From Candidatus Micrarchaeota archaeon (GTDB taxonomy: Archaea; B1Sed10-29; JAJRYS01): 35,772 bases of DNA. Positions 3,451 through 35,772 of this stretch are shown here, in pieces (within the stretch, counting starts at the first letter, position 1; every line of letters starts with the position of its first letter). The position numbers and the translations under genes were made by a program. The stretch spans positions 1 to 35,772 of the forward strand of contig CAZBZN010000005.1 of NCBI GenBank assembly GCA_964496415.1. Direction: 5' to 3'. Under the pieces are notes generated by a model, which worked only from the letters and a program-made list of their open reading frames with translations, did no database searches and had not been told where the DNA came from.

Positions 3451-3961
3451 AATAATGACAAAAGCAGTGATAACTGCAAAAGAAGATGATTCTATTTATA
3501 AAGCAGCGAAAATCATGAAAAAAGCAGACATTGGAGGATTAGTAGTAGCAAAAAAAGGAAAAGTTGTAGGAATAATCACTGAAGGAGACATAATAAAAGA
3601 CGTGTTAGCAGAAGGCCTTGACTACAAAAAAGTCTCAGTGAGAATGATAATGAAACATCCTGTAAGAACAATCCCCCCTGAAACAGACGTGGAAGAAGCA
3701 GCAAGAATAATGAGAGACCTTAACATTGAAAGACTTCCAGTAGTAAACAAAGAAGGTAACTTAATTGGAATAGTAACAGAAAGAGACCTGACACTAATAG
3801 AGCCAGCATTATTAGAAATAATGAAAGAAAAAGAAGCAATTCCAACTTTAAAAGAAGAAGTTGCTTATGAAGGAATCTGTGAAAACTGCGGTAATTACTC
3901 AGAAAACCTAAGATACAAGAATGGCATGTACGTCTGTGAGGACTGTTATTATTCAGAATAA
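3425..3961 (+). CDS. CBS-pair protein with C-terminal Zn ribbon
   Basis: GIITEGD and GIVTERD CBS motifs; CENC...CEDC. Confidence 0.9.
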   Translation: MATGVKVSEIMTKAVITAKEDDSIYKAAKIMKKADIGGLVVAKKGKVVGIITEGDIIKDVLAEGLDYKKVSVRMIMKHPVRTIPPETDVEEAARIMRDLNIERLPVVNKEGNLIGIVTERDLTLIEPALLEIMKEKEAIPTLKEEVAYEGICENCGNYSENLRYKNGMYVCEDCYYSE

Positions 3962-3977
3962 AAATGGAGGTTAGTTC

Positions 3978-4796
3978 ATGATTGAAAACATAATTGAATT
4001 CTTAGAACCAATAGTTCTTGTAAAACCAGAAGACCCAATAGCTCATATTAGAAAAATACTATTAAGAACACATGGGGACAGAGTAATAGTCTTTAAAGAA
4101 AAACCTTTGGGAATAATCACTGAAAAAGACCTGGTAGAAGCACTTAGAAATGAAAAAAGACCAATCGATGAAATAACAGCAAAAGAGATAATGAAAAAAC
4201 AACTCATCACCATAACCCCAGACACTCCTATAAAAGAAGCTGCAAAAATAATGCTTGAAAAAGGAATATCAGGAATACCAGTGGAAAAAGAGAAAGACCT
4301 GATAGGAATGGTTACAAAAAGAAGTCTTCTCAAATACTTCAGCAGAACAGCAGACCCTGGAATAAAAGTAGAAGAACTAATGACCAAAGGAGTAAAAACA
4401 GTTAAAGAATTCCACTCAATCTTTCATGCTATAAAAGAGATGAAAAAACACAAAATAGGGCGGTTGGTAGTAGTAAGAGACAACAAACCAGTAGGAATAA
4501 TAACAGAACATGACCTAAGCCTTGCCTCCTTCAAACCAGAACCAAGCAAAATAATCTTTATAAGAAAAAGCACAAAAGGACCCATCAGCAAACAAGTGAG
4601 GATACTTCCAATAGTAGTAGCAGATGTAATGCAAGAAAATATCAAAACAGTAAAACCTGAAGAAAGTGCTGTAAAAGCAGCTGAAAAACTCCTAAAGCAT
4701 AAAATTGGCTCATTAATAGTGGTAGATAAAAAAGGAAGCCCTTCAGGAATAATCACAAAAACAGACTTTATTAAGAAGATAGTCAGAGGCCTGTAA
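3978..4796 (+). CDS. Four-CBS-domain protein
   Basis: Four G(I/M)(I/V)T motifs. Confidence 0.9.
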   Translation: MIENIIEFLEPIVLVKPEDPIAHIRKILLRTHGDRVIVFKEKPLGIITEKDLVEALRNEKRPIDEITAKEIMKKQLITITPDTPIKEAAKIMLEKGISGIPVEKEKDLIGMVTKRSLLKYFSRTADPGIKVEELMTKGVKTVKEFHSIFHAIKEMKKHKIGRLVVVRDNKPVGIITEHDLSLASFKPEPSKIIFIRKSTKGPISKQVRILPIVVADVMQENIKTVKPEESAVKAAEKLLKHKIGSLIVVDKKGSPSGIITKTDFIKKIVRGL

Positions 4797-32171: not shown

Positions 32172-32193
32172 GCTTTCAATCTCCTTTCAAAAA

Positions 32194-32361
32194 CGGGCCC
32201 AGGGGGATTTTCTCCTGCAGGAGAAAAGCTCAGAGAGCTTAGCTCTCTGCAGATTTGAACCCCCGACACCCAGGTTAAGAGCCTGGTGCTCTAACCATTT
32301 CAGCTGCAAGAGCTGAAAGCTCAGGAGCGAAAAGCTCCTGCAGAGACTGAGCTATGGGCCC
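32194..32361 (-). tRNA. tRNA-Lys(CTT) with two introns: D-loop (32298-32344, 47 nt) and T-loop 59/60 (32208-32253, 46 nt)
   Basis: Spliced sequence GGGCCCATAGCTCAGTC^TGGTTAGAGCACCAGGCTCTTAACCTGGGTGTCGGGGGTTCAAA^TCCCCCTGGGCCCG folds as a complete cloverleaf. Confidence 0.92.
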
Positions 32362-32374
32362 GTGAACAGTTAAG

Positions 32375-33667: not shown

Positions 33668-33741
33668 CGCCCCGGGCCGGATTTGAACCGGCGCTCTCAC
33701 GGTTAACAGCCGTGCGCTTTTCCGGACTAAGCTACCAGGGC
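33668..33741 (-). tRNA. tRNA-Asn(GTT), intronless
   Basis: GCCCTGG/CCGGGGC acceptor, CACGG-CT-GTT-AA-CCGTG, GCCGG-TTCAAAT-CCGGC. Confidence 0.95.
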
Positions 33742-33793: not shown

Positions 33794-33920
33794 TACTGGA
33801 CTGAGCGTAAGCGAACGTCCTGTAAATGCCAGCTTTTTGAAGCTGCCGCAAGCAGCACGCGGTTTTAGGGGATTGAAGCGTCAGCGGAAATCCCCTGTCC
33901 GCCAGCCGTACGCGGCTGTA
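33794..33920. repeat. Five-hairpin GC-rich element at the 3' end of tRNA-Gly(GCC); 33866-33920 is homologous to 35492-35543
   Basis: Stems GGAC/GTCC, CAGCTT/AAGCTG, CCGC/GCGG, AGGGGATT/AATCCCCT, CAGCCG/CGGCTG. Confidence 0.75.
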
Positions 33921-34044
33921 TGCGCCCGCCGGGAGTTTCAAACCGCATGCTTATTATGAAAAAACTGTTTTTTAAGGCATGCAGTTAATCGAACCCGGGC
34001 CTCGGCCGTGGCAGGGCCGTGTCATACCACTAGACTACGGGCGC
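33921..34044 (-). tRNA. tRNA-Gly(GCC) with 53-nt intron in T-loop (59/60; 33935-33987)
   Basis: GCGCCCG/CGGGCGC acceptor, CGGCC-CT-GCC-AC-GGCCG; strict BHB CCGGG-TTCG-AT^T-AACTGCATGC...GCATGCGGTT-TGAA-AC^T-CCCGG. Confidence 0.94.
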
Positions 34045-34051
34045 ATAATGT

Positions 34052-35389
34052 TTAGTCTTCTTTTGATAAGGCTTGTAGGGATTTTTTAATTTTTCTTTCA
34101 GTCAAATGTTTTTCATAAGTGTTTTTAATCTTCTGGTTTTTATTCCTTGCTGCAAACAACAAGACTGCTATTATGAGAACCACTACAACGTATTTCATTA
34201 TTTCAGAGTAATTTATTCGGACTTTAGCCTCTGGGTGTTCATAATTTATTTCATTTACTTGCGTTACTTGAATTCCTTTAACTGAATAGTATGGGTAATC
34301 ATCACTTGCTTGAAGAGTTATTTTTTGCTGAGAGTCTATTGTAACAACCACTATCGGGAAGGAGTAAACGTACTCTGGTGAGAGAGCTGAAGATAAGTTA
34401 AAGTCAAAAGTGATCGTTCTTGAAGAATATGGTGGCACAACTAATGTCTTTATTTTTTCTTTAAGATTAATGTCTTCATCAGTGAATACTCTCACTAAAG
34501 AGGCTACTGTGAAAGGATTATCGTTTTTCACTGTCACCATCAACTGGTTGTATGAGCCTGGTGCTGTTTTTTCATGAGCAAGAAGTAGGTGTGTGTTGAA
34601 TAGCTTTGAAGATGACTCAGTTATTTTTGTAATGAATATTTTTCTTTCAAGAACTGGGTTTACTCCCACTATCTTATCGCTTCCTTTTGAAGGGTCTTCT
34701 GCTTCAACTAATTTTATCTTGTCTGCTTTTGTAAAAAACTCTCCGTTTGTTGGGTCTGCTGGAATCCACTTTCCATTAATGTATACTTCAATCCATGCAT
34801 GTGGGACGTAACTTTCATCTTCAACAAGAAAGCCTTCAACGTATTTGGTTGGGATTCCTATTGCTCTAAGTAACGCTGCTGAGAGGATAGAGTAATCGCC
34901 GCATACGCCGTTCATTTCTCTAAGGATCTCTGAAGCTTTTCTCCGAGTTCCTGTCTTTGAAATGTTATATTTCATGTTCTCAAAAACCCATTTTATTATC
35001 TCAGCTGTTTTTTCATAATCATCTTCTGCTGATGCTGTAATTTCTTCTGCTTTTTCAATAACTTCTGGTGTTACGTCAACATATTTCGTGCTTTCTAAAA
35101 ATTTTCCAATGTCACCAGAAGCTGTTGAAAACCTTAAGGGACTAGCATTCACTTCCACTATTGCTTTGTATTCAAATTCTCCGGATAGTTTTACATAGTC
35201 ACCGTATTCATCTGAAAAAACTTCGTGTGGAGTGATTTGAATTACTTTTTGGGAGGACGTGTTAAAAGGAACTCTTAAAATCAAATACCCATTAGTAACG
35301 TTGCCTGTTACTTTATACTCGTAAACAGCTGACTCTTCAAAACCATGTGCTGCAAAAAGAACAAGTAACAGAAAAAGAATCCTCTTCAT
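34052..35389 (-). CDS. Secreted/membrane-anchored transglutaminase-like protein
   Basis: Signal peptide, GVCGDYS..LLRAIGIP, HAWIEV..W...DPT triad, C-terminal TM helix. Confidence 0.9.
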   Translation of the reverse strand: MKRILFLLLVLFAAHGFEESAVYEYKVTGNVTNGYLILRVPFNTSSQKVIQITPHEVFSDEYGDYVKLSGEFEYKAIVEVNASPLRFSTASGDIGKFLESTKYVDVTPEVIEKAEEITASAEDDYEKTAEIIKWVFENMKYNISKTGTRRKASEILREMNGVCGDYSILSAALLRAIGIPTKYVEGFLVEDESYVPHAWIEVYINGKWIPADPTNGEFFTKADKIKLVEAEDPSKGSDKIVGVNPVLERKIFITKITESSSKLFNTHLLLAHEKTAPGSYNQLMVTVKNDNPFTVASLVRVFTDEDINLKEKIKTLVVPPYSSRTITFDFNLSSALSPEYVYSFPIVVVTIDSQQKITLQASDDYPYYSVKGIQVTQVNEINYEHPEAKVRINYSEIMKYVVVVLIIAVLLFAARNKNQKIKNTYEKHLTERKIKKSLQALSKED

Positions 35390-35426
35390 AAAAAACACTT
35401 AACCTTTGAGAATATAAAAACTAATT

Positions 35427-35543
35427 GGGTTGAAGGCTGCAGGCCTGAAGTCTTGTATCTGCGAGCCGCATGCGGCTCTTTGAAGTTTGTCTAGGGGATT
35501 GAGCAAAGCGAAATCCCCTGCCCGCAAGCCGCGCGCGGCTTAA
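35427..35543. repeat. Four-hairpin GC-rich element at the 3' end of tRNA-Gly(TCC); second copy of the module
   Basis: Stems AGGC/GCCT, GAGCCG/CGGCTC, AGGGGATT/AATCCCCT, AAGCCG/CGGCTT. Confidence 0.75.
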
Positions 35544-35650
35544 TGCGCCGGCCGGGATTTGAACCCGGGCCGTTGGCTTGGAAGGCCAAAGTCCTACCAT
35601 TCCAGGCATCCAGCCAGTGAGTGACTGGAAGCAGGCTAGACTACCGGCGC
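35544..35650 (-). tRNA. tRNA-Gly(TCC) with 34-nt D-loop intron (35600-35633)
   Basis: GCGCCGG/CCGGCGC acceptor, TTGGC-CT-TCC-AA-GCCAA; CTAG-CC^T-GC..TCCAGTCA/TGGCTGGA..GC-CTGG-AA^T. Confidence 0.92.
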
Positions 35651-35672: not shown

Positions 35673-35772
35673 CGGGCCCGAGGGGATTTGAACCCCCGAC
35701 ACCCAGGTTAAAAGCCTGGTGCTCTGCCACTTCAGGAAACTTCCTTCTTAATTTTTAAAGAAAGGTTCTGAC
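35673..35772 (-). tRNA. tRNA-Lys(TTT), 5' end outside the window, with 40-nt D-loop intron (35730-35769)
   Basis: 3' exon TGGCAGAGCACCAGGCTTTTAACCTGGGTGTCGGGGGTTCAAATCCCCTCGGGCCCG; the intron ends CTGAAG and is preceded by GTC, as in tRNA-Lys(CTT). Confidence 0.85.

Follow-up and report, generated by a model that had tools for sequence, protein, structure and literature searches.

The window, by which we mean the whole 35,772-nt stretch of Candidatus Micrarchaeota archaeon DNA analyzed here, contains two tRNA-Gly genes on its minus strand, and an array of GC-rich hairpins adjoins the 3' end of each (Table 1). The limits of both genes and of their introns were read by eye. A sequence-only reading of this region had pointed to a shared structured module at 33866-33920 and 35492-35543, and both sequences are indeed found at these positions on the plus strand. 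The window holds exactly two matches to the composite pattern AGGGGATT-N9-14-AATCCCCT-GYCCGC-N-AGCCG-N4-CGGCT (33867-33917 and 35493-35540), and none of 100 dinucleotide-preserving shuffles gave any. As had been proposed, both copies keep a distance of 3 nt to the tRNA, with CGGCT ending at 33917 and 35540 and the discriminators at 33921 and 35544, and the pair closing the AGCCG/CGGCT hairpin changes in a compensatory manner (C-G in copy 1, A-T in copy 2); over nine copies this pair is A-U in five and C-G in four. The two DNA runs covering the region present the same arrangement of both arrays, and no structural variants of either array were found among the DNA contigs of four runs, which break at repeats.

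Table 1. Features of the two tRNA-Gly loci and their arrays in the window.
Feature	Position	Strand	Basis or remark
tRNA-Gly(GCC), T-loop intron, discriminator A 33921, acceptor GCGCCCG/CGGGCGC	33921..34044	-	Rfam tRNA match 33990-34044; rest read
Spacer UAC, 3 nt, from discriminator to first hairpin (copy 1)	33918..33920	-	spacer C pairs with G33903
Small hairpin b of cassette E_A, AGCCG-CGUA-CGGCU	33904..33917	-	
Linker GGCGGAC, repeating the 3' arm of b	33897..33903	-	predicted pairing with CCGC beyond hairpin c
Large hairpin c, outer stem AGGGGAUU/AAUCCCCU, inner GC-loop-GC	33867..33896	-	
Conserved internal loop of c, UUC/UCA (UGA/GAA on the plus strand)	within 33867..33896	-	
Degenerate b-like segment closing a helix around c	33845..33866	-	MFE fold
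Sister cassette E_B, whole	33798..33845	-	E_A models also match: 21.9 bits; 50.1 bits in second model scan
E_B small hairpin a, CAGCUU-CAAA-AAGCUG	33830-33845	-	
E_B linker GCAUUUAC	33822-33829	-	
E_B large hairpin d	33798-33821	-	
tRNA-Asn(GUU), AT-rich stretch before gene, no cassette after 3' end	33668..33741	-	
tRNA-Gly(UCC), D-loop intron, discriminator A 35544	35544..35650	-	
Spacer UUA, 3 nt (copy 2)	35541..35543	-	spacer A pairs with U35526
Cassette E_A copy 2	35493..35540	-	
b of copy 2	35527-35540	-	
Linker UGCGGGC of copy 2	35520-35526	-	
c of copy 2	35493-35519	-	
Rest of array 2	35427..35492	-	covariance model match 35437-35480, 20.7 bits
Truncated a	35478-35492	-	
Second b	35464-35477	-	
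Linker	35455-35463	-	
d-like hairpin	35427-35454	-	
T5 run directly after array 2	35416..35420	-	likely terminator of the tRNA-Lys / tRNA-Gly / array transcription unit

The module is one type, E_A, of a lineage-restricted family of GC-rich palindromic double-hairpin cassettes. E_A consists of a small hairpin of 5-6 bp, a linker of 6-7 nt and a large hairpin with a conserved UUC/UCA internal loop, and the units follow a fixed order (small b then large c, small a then large d), with the small-hairpin end of the cassette always directed toward the RNA gene. Units lie head to tail, in a single orientation per array, and form mosaics whose number and order of units vary between loci, with junctions reading UA(N), UUUAC or AA/AG; E_B copies are matched by E_A models too. 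The 68 small hairpins found in 20 arrays are near-perfect palindromes of 14-16 bp. In an alignment of nine copies, 96.8% of cells are paired and 4 of 14 pairs have changed on both sides, and in an alignment of 31 copies fitted to the model the corresponding values are 93.8% and 12 of 14; none of 500 shuffles scored as high in either case. The description of the module as a repeated, structured, non-coding element is borne out, and its stems are kept by compensatory changes. While the stems co-vary, the UUC/UCA loop letters and the b-plus-linker sequence are conserved across families, and the loop motif is enriched versus control in this genome (G000, 12 vs 0) and in three others (G001, 11 vs 1; G011, 11 vs 2; G007, 7 vs 1).

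The two strands of the arrays are close to equivalent, with summed MFE values of -962 vs -980 kcal/mol, G-U pairs numbering 82/1031 vs 78/1015, and loops that are flipped in some copies (e.g. CGTA vs TACG), a symmetry to be expected of DNA palindromes. The antisense RNA that had been offered as one interpretation is conceivable, but nothing supports it; both strands fold and use G-U pairs equally. Homopolymer runs are distributed differently: on the tRNA strand there are 22 runs of A5 or longer vs four of T5 or longer, and in all but one of the 20 arrays the small a hairpins, without exception, have their A5 on this strand and T5 on the opposite one. One of the four T5+ runs lies in an inverted a unit beside tRNA-Asp, the only T5 inside an array on the tRNA strand, and the other three are found where arrays end or further out. 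Behind hairpin b there is just a T3, not the T-run that follows the hairpin of an intrinsic terminator.

The genome-wide distribution was determined by BLAST searches from array seeds, used instead of GC-island and 13-mer censuses that proved too noisy. In this 91%-complete assembly the searches converge on 23 regions totaling 2,594 nt, and about 20 loci remain because several contig ends are joined by metagenome contigs. Positions were assigned by reading the surroundings of each region. Sixteen arrays begin 0-3 nt past a tRNA discriminator, belonging to tRNAs for Gly (three), Ile, Pro (two), Ala (two), Leu (four), Phe and Val, to an unnamed tRNA and to a tRNA 3' fragment. One array lies directly behind the SRP RNA gene, three are inverted against tRNA 5' ends with no spacer (tRNA-Asp, tRNA-Val(GAC) and one further tRNA), one cassette resides inside the T-loop intron of a tRNA, and two regions run off contig ends; among the 23 regions, none was found away from stable-RNA genes. 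Of some 39 tRNA genes, about 23 lack an array on the 3' side. Multi-unit blocks that are nearly identical stand behind one tRNA-Ile, one tRNA-Val and two tRNA-Pro genes, and many of the genome's contig ends fall within arrays. A scan of metagenomes returned 11 loci, six of which are this organism and five of which do not match it. Seven single matches in a pattern scan of genome contigs came from unrelated bacteria and were taken as chance, and a viral-contig scan gave one unrelated GC-rich match without a tRNA. Two side observations concern individual loci: a possible 5-nt repeat, CGGCT, around a 66-nt a-d block of the tRNA-Phe trailer, known from a comparison of two alternative contig paths between which the block differs, and a possible permuted or split tRNA-Pro, the other tRNA genes being complete.

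The sequence-only reading had found the module at none of the other tRNA genes, which holds within the window, where the covariance model matches only the two arrays, but not genome-wide. Its proposal of an element or trailer specific to tRNA-Gly draws some support from the third glycine tRNA (CCC), which also carries a cassette, so that all three glycine isoacceptor genes bear E_A with a short c hairpin. The same short-c form, however, is found behind tRNA-Ala(GGC), tRNA-Leu(CAG) and SRP RNA, and before tRNA-Val(GAC) and one further tRNA. Specificity for tRNA-Gly is refuted by such copies of the cassette at other stable-RNA genes, an outcome that the reading itself had set against its proposal: they follow tRNA-Ile, Pro, Ala, Leu, Phe and Val as well as SRP RNA, and precede, inverted, tRNA-Asp, tRNA-Val(GAC) and one further tRNA. 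We regard this version as hardly tenable, and the cassette on tRNA-Gly(CCC) conforms to the general rule and does not argue for specificity.

Related cassettes were then sought in other archaea. A DNA search of 40 relatives returned no real match outside this genome, the one match being 21 nt long (E = 0.004). Covariance model R2, run on 31 genomes of the class, matched five of them (this genome, 34 matches; G002, five; G004, four; G007, two; G022, one), such that the cassette is found in four of the 30 other genomes, and no match was obtained in 26 of the 31. In two sister genera (G002 and G004) all nine matches lie inside tRNA T-loop introns, where they begin directly after GGTTCGAA or GGTTCAA within the tRNA gene and make up the 5' part of the intron. 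In a third genus (G022) the match fills the anticodon-loop intron of tRNA-Ser, and in a fourth (G007) both matches lie behind tRNA-Gln. For tRNA-Leu(CAG), matched across genomes by anticodon alone, cassettes lie in the trailer in this genome, lie in the T-loop intron in G002 and are absent in G004. In four sister genera the majority of tRNAs have a plain T-tract at their end; several intact tRNAs in the sister genera also present a second copy of their own 3' end about 100-150 nt downstream.

The arrays were compared with known families of RNA and mobile elements. As had been suspected, they match no RNA family in Rfam: a scan of the arrays gave no match, with only tRNA and SRP RNA passing and U7 and miRNA noise below threshold, and the tRNA model did not match the arrays even at E up to 10. 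The suggested search for HUH/RAYT or tyrosine-integrase genes found none in the 91%-complete genome. A Y1 transposase (PF01797) was not matched there, with the control giving matches in 6 of 14 genomes, and no TnpB over the cut-off, tyrosine recombinase or reverse transcriptase was found. Mobile genes are often missing from assemblies. RNase Z and RNase P RNA are present in the genome, and no RNase III was found. No terminal inverted repeat (TIR) spans the cassette or the array, and none of 13 tRNAs with arrays has a duplicated 3' end downstream, as searched up to 500 nt (49-100 nt for four tRNAs at contig ends), where only the T-loops of the next tRNAs repeat. The label REP/MITE-like applies in the broad sense of short repeated palindromes; no RAYT gene was found in the 91%-complete genome, and neither a TIR nor a target-site duplication was seen, apart from the possible CGGCT repeat noted above.

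Several structural candidates were dropped by eye, namely a K-turn (there is no 3-nt bulge, and the G-A pairs lie in a symmetric loop), a box C/D or H/ACA guide RNA (no UGAUGA and no consistent ACA), and hammerhead and T-arm-mimic readings of the large hairpin. GTCCAGTGAAAGGGAAGGGG may resemble archaeal origin-recognition boxes, although such a role is unlikely given about 20 dispersed loci. The inverted linker GTAAAT was at first considered as a promoter motif, but it sits too near +1 for this. With regard to the bulge-helix-bulge (BHB) motif, the two 3-nt stretches of the large hairpin, read by eye, face each other and are not staggered by 4 bp, and attempts to draw a BHB where the discriminator meets the cassette gave none. 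The window copies follow the discriminator of complete tRNAs and, unlike a BHB intron, do not interrupt the mature tRNA, which is interrupted by cassette homologs in G002, G004, G022 and one tRNA of this genome.

Judging from the copies, their grammar, covariation and positions, and the relatives, the reading that we favor, with a confidence about evenly balanced between belief and doubt, is that the arrays are intron-related palindromic cassettes that are co-transcribed and then discarded, that have spread by recombination, and that resemble REP/BIME elements without being members of them. The same cassette occurs in sister-genus introns, and the cassettes appear to be related to tRNA intron sequences; in this genome the arrays occupy every part of the stable-RNA transcription unit that is cut away in maturation, i.e. 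3' trailers, 5' leaders and introns. Arrays would be transcribed together with the adjoining tRNA or SRP RNA, from which RNase Z, RNase P and the splicing endonuclease would then cut them. Their spread and homogenization would proceed via DNA recombination between hairpins and tRNA flanks, through gene conversion and template switching, and would require no transposase of the cassette's own. Cassettes would persist only where the mature RNA discards them, which would make them largely selfish or neutral. Against this reading, the conservation of loop letters and of the b-plus-linker sequence exceeds the needs of a neutral element, and these conserved letters point to a trans-acting factor that recognizes them. 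The strict confinement to the ends of stable-RNA genes at a fixed distance is also not explained by recombination and selection alone.

A trans-acting factor features in the doubtful, though possible, alternative that the cassettes are processing or stability elements of stable-RNA precursors recognized by a conserved protein. They might clamp the precursor, keep exonucleases off its 3' end at high temperature, or bring RNase Z, RNase P or the splicing endonuclease into place. The fixed distance to the discriminator, the same hairpin directly bordering T-loop introns on their 5' side in sister genera, the conserved loop and b-plus-linker letters on co-varying stems, the enrichment of the loop motif in several genomes of the order, and the lack of T5 inside arrays on the tRNA strand apart from the inverted unit beside tRNA-Asp are all consistent with such a function. 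However, some 23 of 39 tRNA genes do without a trailing array, sister-genus tRNAs mostly end in a T-tract, unit number and order vary by locus, 26 of 31 genomes of the class have no match, and neither strand is favored by folding energy or by G-U use; moreover, a strand-specific RNA motif would be lost in 5' leaders, where the cassette is inverted. The small-hairpin end facing the gene from either side, and the near-perfect palindromes, would suit DNA-level protein-binding sites or insulators that halt RNA polymerase entering stable-RNA genes from outside, as would the T5 that a units place opposite the tRNA strand in 19 of 20 arrays (A5+ 22 vs T5+ 4) and the many loops that, on one strand, fit the GCGNAGC / GCGNNAGC mini-hairpin DNA consensus in the available part of PMC13037366. 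We deem this improbable: the T5 beside tRNA-Asp is in sense orientation immediately upstream of the gene, whose own transcript it would terminate as well, T5 is missing from cassettes that lack an a unit, and those inside introns of relatives cannot serve as insulators.

Integration at tRNA genes offers another explanation of the positions, with the arrays as scars of integrase-mediated insertion or att-site remnants of viruses or plasmids. According to the consulted portions of PMC4033280 and PMC3239211, tRNA 3' ends are classical integration sites, and the second 3' ends downstream of intact sister-genus tRNAs are compatible with such events. The absence of a duplicated 3' end in the downstream sequence available for all 13 array-bearing tRNAs, the failure to find a tyrosine recombinase in the 91%-complete genome, the single unrelated match among viral contigs and the copies at SRP RNA and in introns, which do not fit, render it very improbable. 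We would give equally little credence to independent small RNA genes on the plus strand, antisense to the tRNAs. On that strand the large hairpins read UGA...GAA with tandem G-A pairs, loops are of the GNRA type or similar (GUAA, GAAA, GUUA), and c/d-rich arrays are slightly more stable; yet in introns of this genome and its relatives the strand known to be transcribed is the other one, UUCG loops occur on the tRNA strand of other units, the strands show no bias overall, arrays lack an internal AT-rich promoter, and the 3-nt bulge of K-turn geometry is absent by eye.

We also consider it possible, if unlikely, that these archaea gained their non-canonical tRNA introns through a mobile unit and that this unit is the double-hairpin cassette. 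Its insertion sites would be those left exposed when stable-RNA genes or transcripts fold (T-loop, anticodon loop, D-loop, just after the discriminator or just before +1), again with no need for a transposase of its own, and insertion on either DNA strand would explain the mirror-image copies at 5' ends. Intron and terminal copies would interconvert, the sister-genus intact tRNAs with a second 3' end would be one case of this interconversion, and this genome would show the cassette in all these states at once.

Among known systems, the REP, BIME and REPIN elements of bacteria are short, GC-rich, imperfect palindromes, non-coding and extragenic, present in many copies and in mosaic clusters; REPINs are REP units in inverted pairs, BIMEs alternate in orientation, and a GTAG/CGTC tag is conserved. 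The cassettes are likewise short, GC-rich, many-copy, non-coding and extragenic mosaics of a few unit types with compensatory stems, but they lie head to tail rather than in inverted pairs, carry no GTAG or CGTC tag, have an archaeal host in whose genome no RAYT (Y1) gene was found, and are located at stable-RNA gene ends and in introns, whereas REP elements lie at the 3' ends of protein operons. A second likeness is to the 'transposed' non-canonical tRNA introns of Thermoproteales, for which the consulted portions of PMC4033280 and PMC3239211 describe similar introns across specificities, insertion points including the T-loop (59/60) and the anticodon loop, and an 'intron transposition' with no known mechanism. 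These introns and the disrupted tRNA genes of ARMAN-2 share with the cassettes the similarity among introns, the T-loop and anticodon-loop sites and heavily interrupted host tRNAs; as far as these accounts extend, the cassette differs in also lying after the discriminator, before +1 and behind SRP RNA and in being multiplied into arrays, and the same portions of PMC4033280 and PMC3239211 make no mention of terminal or arrayed copies. Mitochondrial GC clusters, double-hairpin elements and repetitive hairpin-forming elements, which are regarded as mobile although they carry no gene for it, are comparable as GC-rich hairpins in intergenic regions and introns of a small AT-rich genome (PMC4478555 and PMC2800124, in the parts available). 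On the same partial accounts, they are organellar and unrelated to the cassettes in sequence. To our knowledge, they are not bound to exact tRNA gene ends. The split tRNA genes of Nanoarchaeum equitans have complementary leader and trailer sequences, with GC-rich sequence attached to the tRNA ends (PMC4033280, in part), and in the genome studied here leaders with inverted cassettes are likewise complementary to trailers at other loci; here, by comparison with that partial account, the tRNA genes are complete, with the possible exception of tRNA-Pro, and each hairpin is self-complementary. In a limited search of partially available open-access literature, no description of such arrays in DPANN archaea was found.

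In practical terms, the arrays cause assemblies to break at tRNA loci and standard gene finders to miss tRNA genes. The wider question on which they bear is how archaeal tRNA genes gain introns at non-canonical positions. One recognizable cassette is found inside T-loop and anticodon-loop introns in some genera and at exact 3' or 5' tRNA ends and behind SRP RNA in others. No recognizable transposase, integrase or reverse transcriptase was found in this 91%-complete genome, and the cassette provides a concrete sequence to follow.

In the window, which is contig C5 of the host genome G000 (687 kb, 41 contigs, 36% G+C), all features near the right end lie on the minus strand. The tRNA genes of this genome are of the archaeal type, many with introns in non-canonical places, and the two DNA runs covering most of the region are labelled as hydrothermal vent metagenome, one of the two being a possible origin of the assembly. 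The two modules behind the tRNA-Gly genes were confirmed at 33866-33920 and 35492-35543, and their composite pattern, absent from all of 100 shuffles, was found at two places in the window. On the tRNA strand, each consists of the discriminator A, UAC or UUA as a 3-nt spacer, small hairpin b (AGCCG-N4-CGGCU in both), a 7-nt linker (GGCGGAC or UGCGGGC) and large hairpin c (AGGGGAUU ... AAUCCCCU in both). The two tRNA bodies are indeed unlike, with anticodons GCC and UCC and introns in the T-loop and D-loop, respectively. At 35741-35772, GTCAGAACCTTTCTT(T)AAAAAT... stands before the 3' part of tRNA-Lys(UUU), whose 5' exon lies beyond the contig end, and it recurs inside or before tRNA-Arg(UCU) (C9:14100-14177); it is an intron or leader sequence common to both genes. 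The tRNA-Lys(CUU) gene at 32191-32370 (minus strand) has at least two introns (D-loop, T-loop), flanked by repeated CTGCAGGAG / CTCCTGCAG-like hairpins.

Genes and cassette arrays in the rightmost part of the window, in order from the contig end, and the SRP RNA locus of the same genome
Feature	Position	Strand	Placement
tRNA-Lys(UUU)	right contig end, which cuts the gene	-	first in order
tRNA-Gly(UCC)	35544-35650	-	followed by array 2
Array 2		-	between tRNA-Gly(UCC) and the transglutaminase-like gene
Transglutaminase-like gene	34052-35389	-	between array 2 and tRNA-Gly(GCC)
tRNA-Gly(GCC)	33921-34044	-	followed by array 1
Array 1		-	between tRNA-Gly(GCC) and tRNA-Asn
tRNA-Asn	33668-33741	-	between array 1 and the seryl-tRNA synthetase gene
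Seryl-tRNA synthetase gene		-	beyond tRNA-Asn, last in order
SRP RNA	C23:11373-11647		one array directly after

Exact and BLAST searches recovered the same units on many G000 contigs, often at contig ends, and the BLAST census converged on 23 regions with a total of 2,594 nt. Several contig ends could be bridged with metagenome contigs from this same organism (99-100% identity): these join C3 to C31 (L065) and C27 to C26 (L067), reduce the C32 and C2 copies to one tRNA gene (L068) and extend C23 (L071). The flanks of every recognisable tRNA were read (approximately 39 tRNA genes). At 16 tRNA 3' ends an array begins 0-3 nt past the discriminator: behind tRNAs for Gly (GCC, UCC, CCC), Ile (one), Phe (one), Val (CAC), Pro (UGG, GGG), Ala (GGC, CGC) and Leu (UAA, GAG, UAG, CAG), an unnamed tRNA at C1:40157 and a 3' fragment on C32. 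Three further arrays, inverted and without a spacer, abut the 5' ends of tRNA-Asp, tRNA-Val(GAC) and of a tRNA at C26:~830; a T-loop intron holds one cassette, two arrays reach past contig ends (C15, C19), and the census found no array away from stable-RNA genes. Since it places cassettes behind or before many other tRNAs, and behind SRP RNA, the tRNA-Gly specificity proposed by the sequence-only reading does not hold genome-wide.

Two of these loci have peculiarities of their own. Two contig paths through the tRNA-Phe trailer (C14:1-88 vs C17:14881-14947) differ by a CGGCT-flanked 66-nt a-d block, which is either a population polymorphism (filled/empty site) or an assembly collapse. On C32 (4901-5200, L094), a tRNA-Pro 3' fragment (...CTCGG CGGCCCC A) stands upstream of a 5' part (GGGGCCG...CCGAG TTCAAA) with a cassette of the window type between them, and AACATGAGAAGACGTG after the 5' part is complementary to CACGTCTTCCATG before the 3' fragment. 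A permuted or split tRNA-Pro(GGG) is possible; Rfam and ARAGORN pair the 5' part with a Pro-type 3' end further downstream, at the cost of a mismatch in the acceptor stem.

Folding of 20 arrays resolved two bipartite cassettes, set head to tail in variable number and order: E_A, composed of b, a linker (ACGGAC or GGCGGAC) and c, and E_B, composed of a (CAGCUU-CAAA-AAGCUG), GCAUUUAC and d (AGGAC...GUCC AGUG). A third kind of hairpin, type F, reads GGGGAAACC-loop-GGUGUCCCC. In every case the small-hairpin end points toward the RNA gene, whichever side of the gene the array occupies. Hairpins c and d have variable outer and inner stems around an internal loop that is conserved (tRNA strand, UUC/UCA; opposite strand, UGA/GAA), and the linker repeats, and co-varies with, the 3' arm of b. 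The E_A model also matches E_B copies, and both cassettes therefore have one architecture. Stem covariation is clear. Across nine short E_A copies, 96.8% of cells are paired and 4 of 14 pairs have changed on both sides, a level reached in none of 500 shuffles, and sliding the 3' partners lowers pairing to 26-57%; in the model-fitted alignment of 31 copies from five genomes the values are 93.8% and 12 of 14.

The two strands are closely matched in summed MFE (-962 vs -980 kcal/mol) and G-U pairs (82/1031 vs 78/1015). In c and d, GNRA-type loops and tandem G-A pairs occur on the tRNA-antisense strand, many of these loops agreeing with the mini-hairpin DNA consensus given in PMC13037366; other units have UUCG loops on the tRNA strand, and some loops are flipped from copy to copy. 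Equal strands and flipped loops are the look of DNA-level palindromes. The single clear strand asymmetry lies in T-runs: no T5 run was found within arrays on the tRNA strand, which carries 22 A5+ runs (T5 on the opposite strand), many in 'a' loops, and a T5 run directly follows array 2. Nor was an AT-rich promoter found between array and next gene in SRP RNA - array - tRNA-Gly(CCC) or tRNA-Val - array - tRNA-Glu. The lack of internal T5 runs and of promoters behind some arrays suggests that an array and its neighbouring stable RNA share one transcript.

RNase Z and RNase P RNA are both present in G000, so ordinary removal of leaders and trailers is possible. The RNase P RNA gene (3879-4123 within C36:3700-4552, minus strand) ends in a T-tract and lies a few tens of bases past the 23S rRNA 3' end, with which it may be co-transcribed. 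As for mobilising genes of the HUH/RAYT or tyrosine-integrase kind, this genome (91% complete) yielded no match to Y1 transposase and no Xer-type tyrosine recombinase (control positive in 14/14 reference genomes), nor to reverse transcriptase or RNase III, and no TnpB beyond two sub-threshold zinc-ribbon matches.

A DNA search of 40 relatives, all from other genera, found no DNA-level homologues, and a sequence-pattern scan of genome contigs gave chance matches only. The covariance model R1 matched in 4 of these 40, and a second model, R2, in 5 of 31 class genomes (G000, 34; G002, 5; G004, 4; G007, 2; G022, 1). In G002 (5/5) and G004 (4/4), of the same family, the cassette directly follows GGTTCGAA or GGTTCAA within tRNA genes, where it makes up the 5' portion of T-loop introns in differing tRNAs; in G022 the match takes up the anticodon-loop intron of tRNA-Ser(GCU), and the G007 matches belong to arrays behind tRNA-Gln, arranged as in G000. 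G000 itself has E_B in one T-loop intron and F-like hairpins at the start of two others. For tRNA-Leu(CAG), matched by anticodon only, cassettes occupy the trailer in G000 and the T-loop intron in G002, and are absent in G004. The loop motif TGAGC-N3-4-GCGAA exceeds its control in G000 (12 vs 0), G001 (11 vs 1), G011 (11 vs 2) and G007 (7 vs 1), with most of the order's remaining genomes showing no enrichment.

At four loci (L019, L015 and L035 in G002; L016 in G004) an intact tRNA has its own 3' end repeated ~100-150 nt downstream, in one case with flank copied along; these look like att-type duplications or former T-loop introns turned trailer. G001 has an ~80-nt element family (L045-L049), at least one behind tRNA-Ile, with a co-varying outer stem (e.g. 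GGATTTTGC/GCAAAATCC) around an TGAGCGAAGCGAA mini-hairpin.

The REP/MITE-like label of the sequence-only reading survives in part: cassettes behave like REP/BIME repeats, and like mitochondrial GC clusters, but belong neither to REP/REPIN nor to MITEs by membership tests. Its remark that the module matches no family it recognised was upheld for every Rfam family, the window copies are not BHB introns by the same kind of test, and the portion of the open-access literature searched held no description of such arrays. The main alternative, in which the hairpins serve the host in processing or stabilising the precursor, is favoured by internal-loop letters and a b-plus-linker sequence that are conserved across families, and by an unvarying placement at gene ends and intron borders; we consider this alternative rather unlikely. 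To about an even degree of belief, we favour a lineage-restricted, intron-related family of palindromic double hairpins. Such cassettes would sit in those parts of stable-RNA transcription units that maturation cuts away, travelling in the precursor and then being discarded, and would be spread and homogenised by recombination, without an enzyme of their own.
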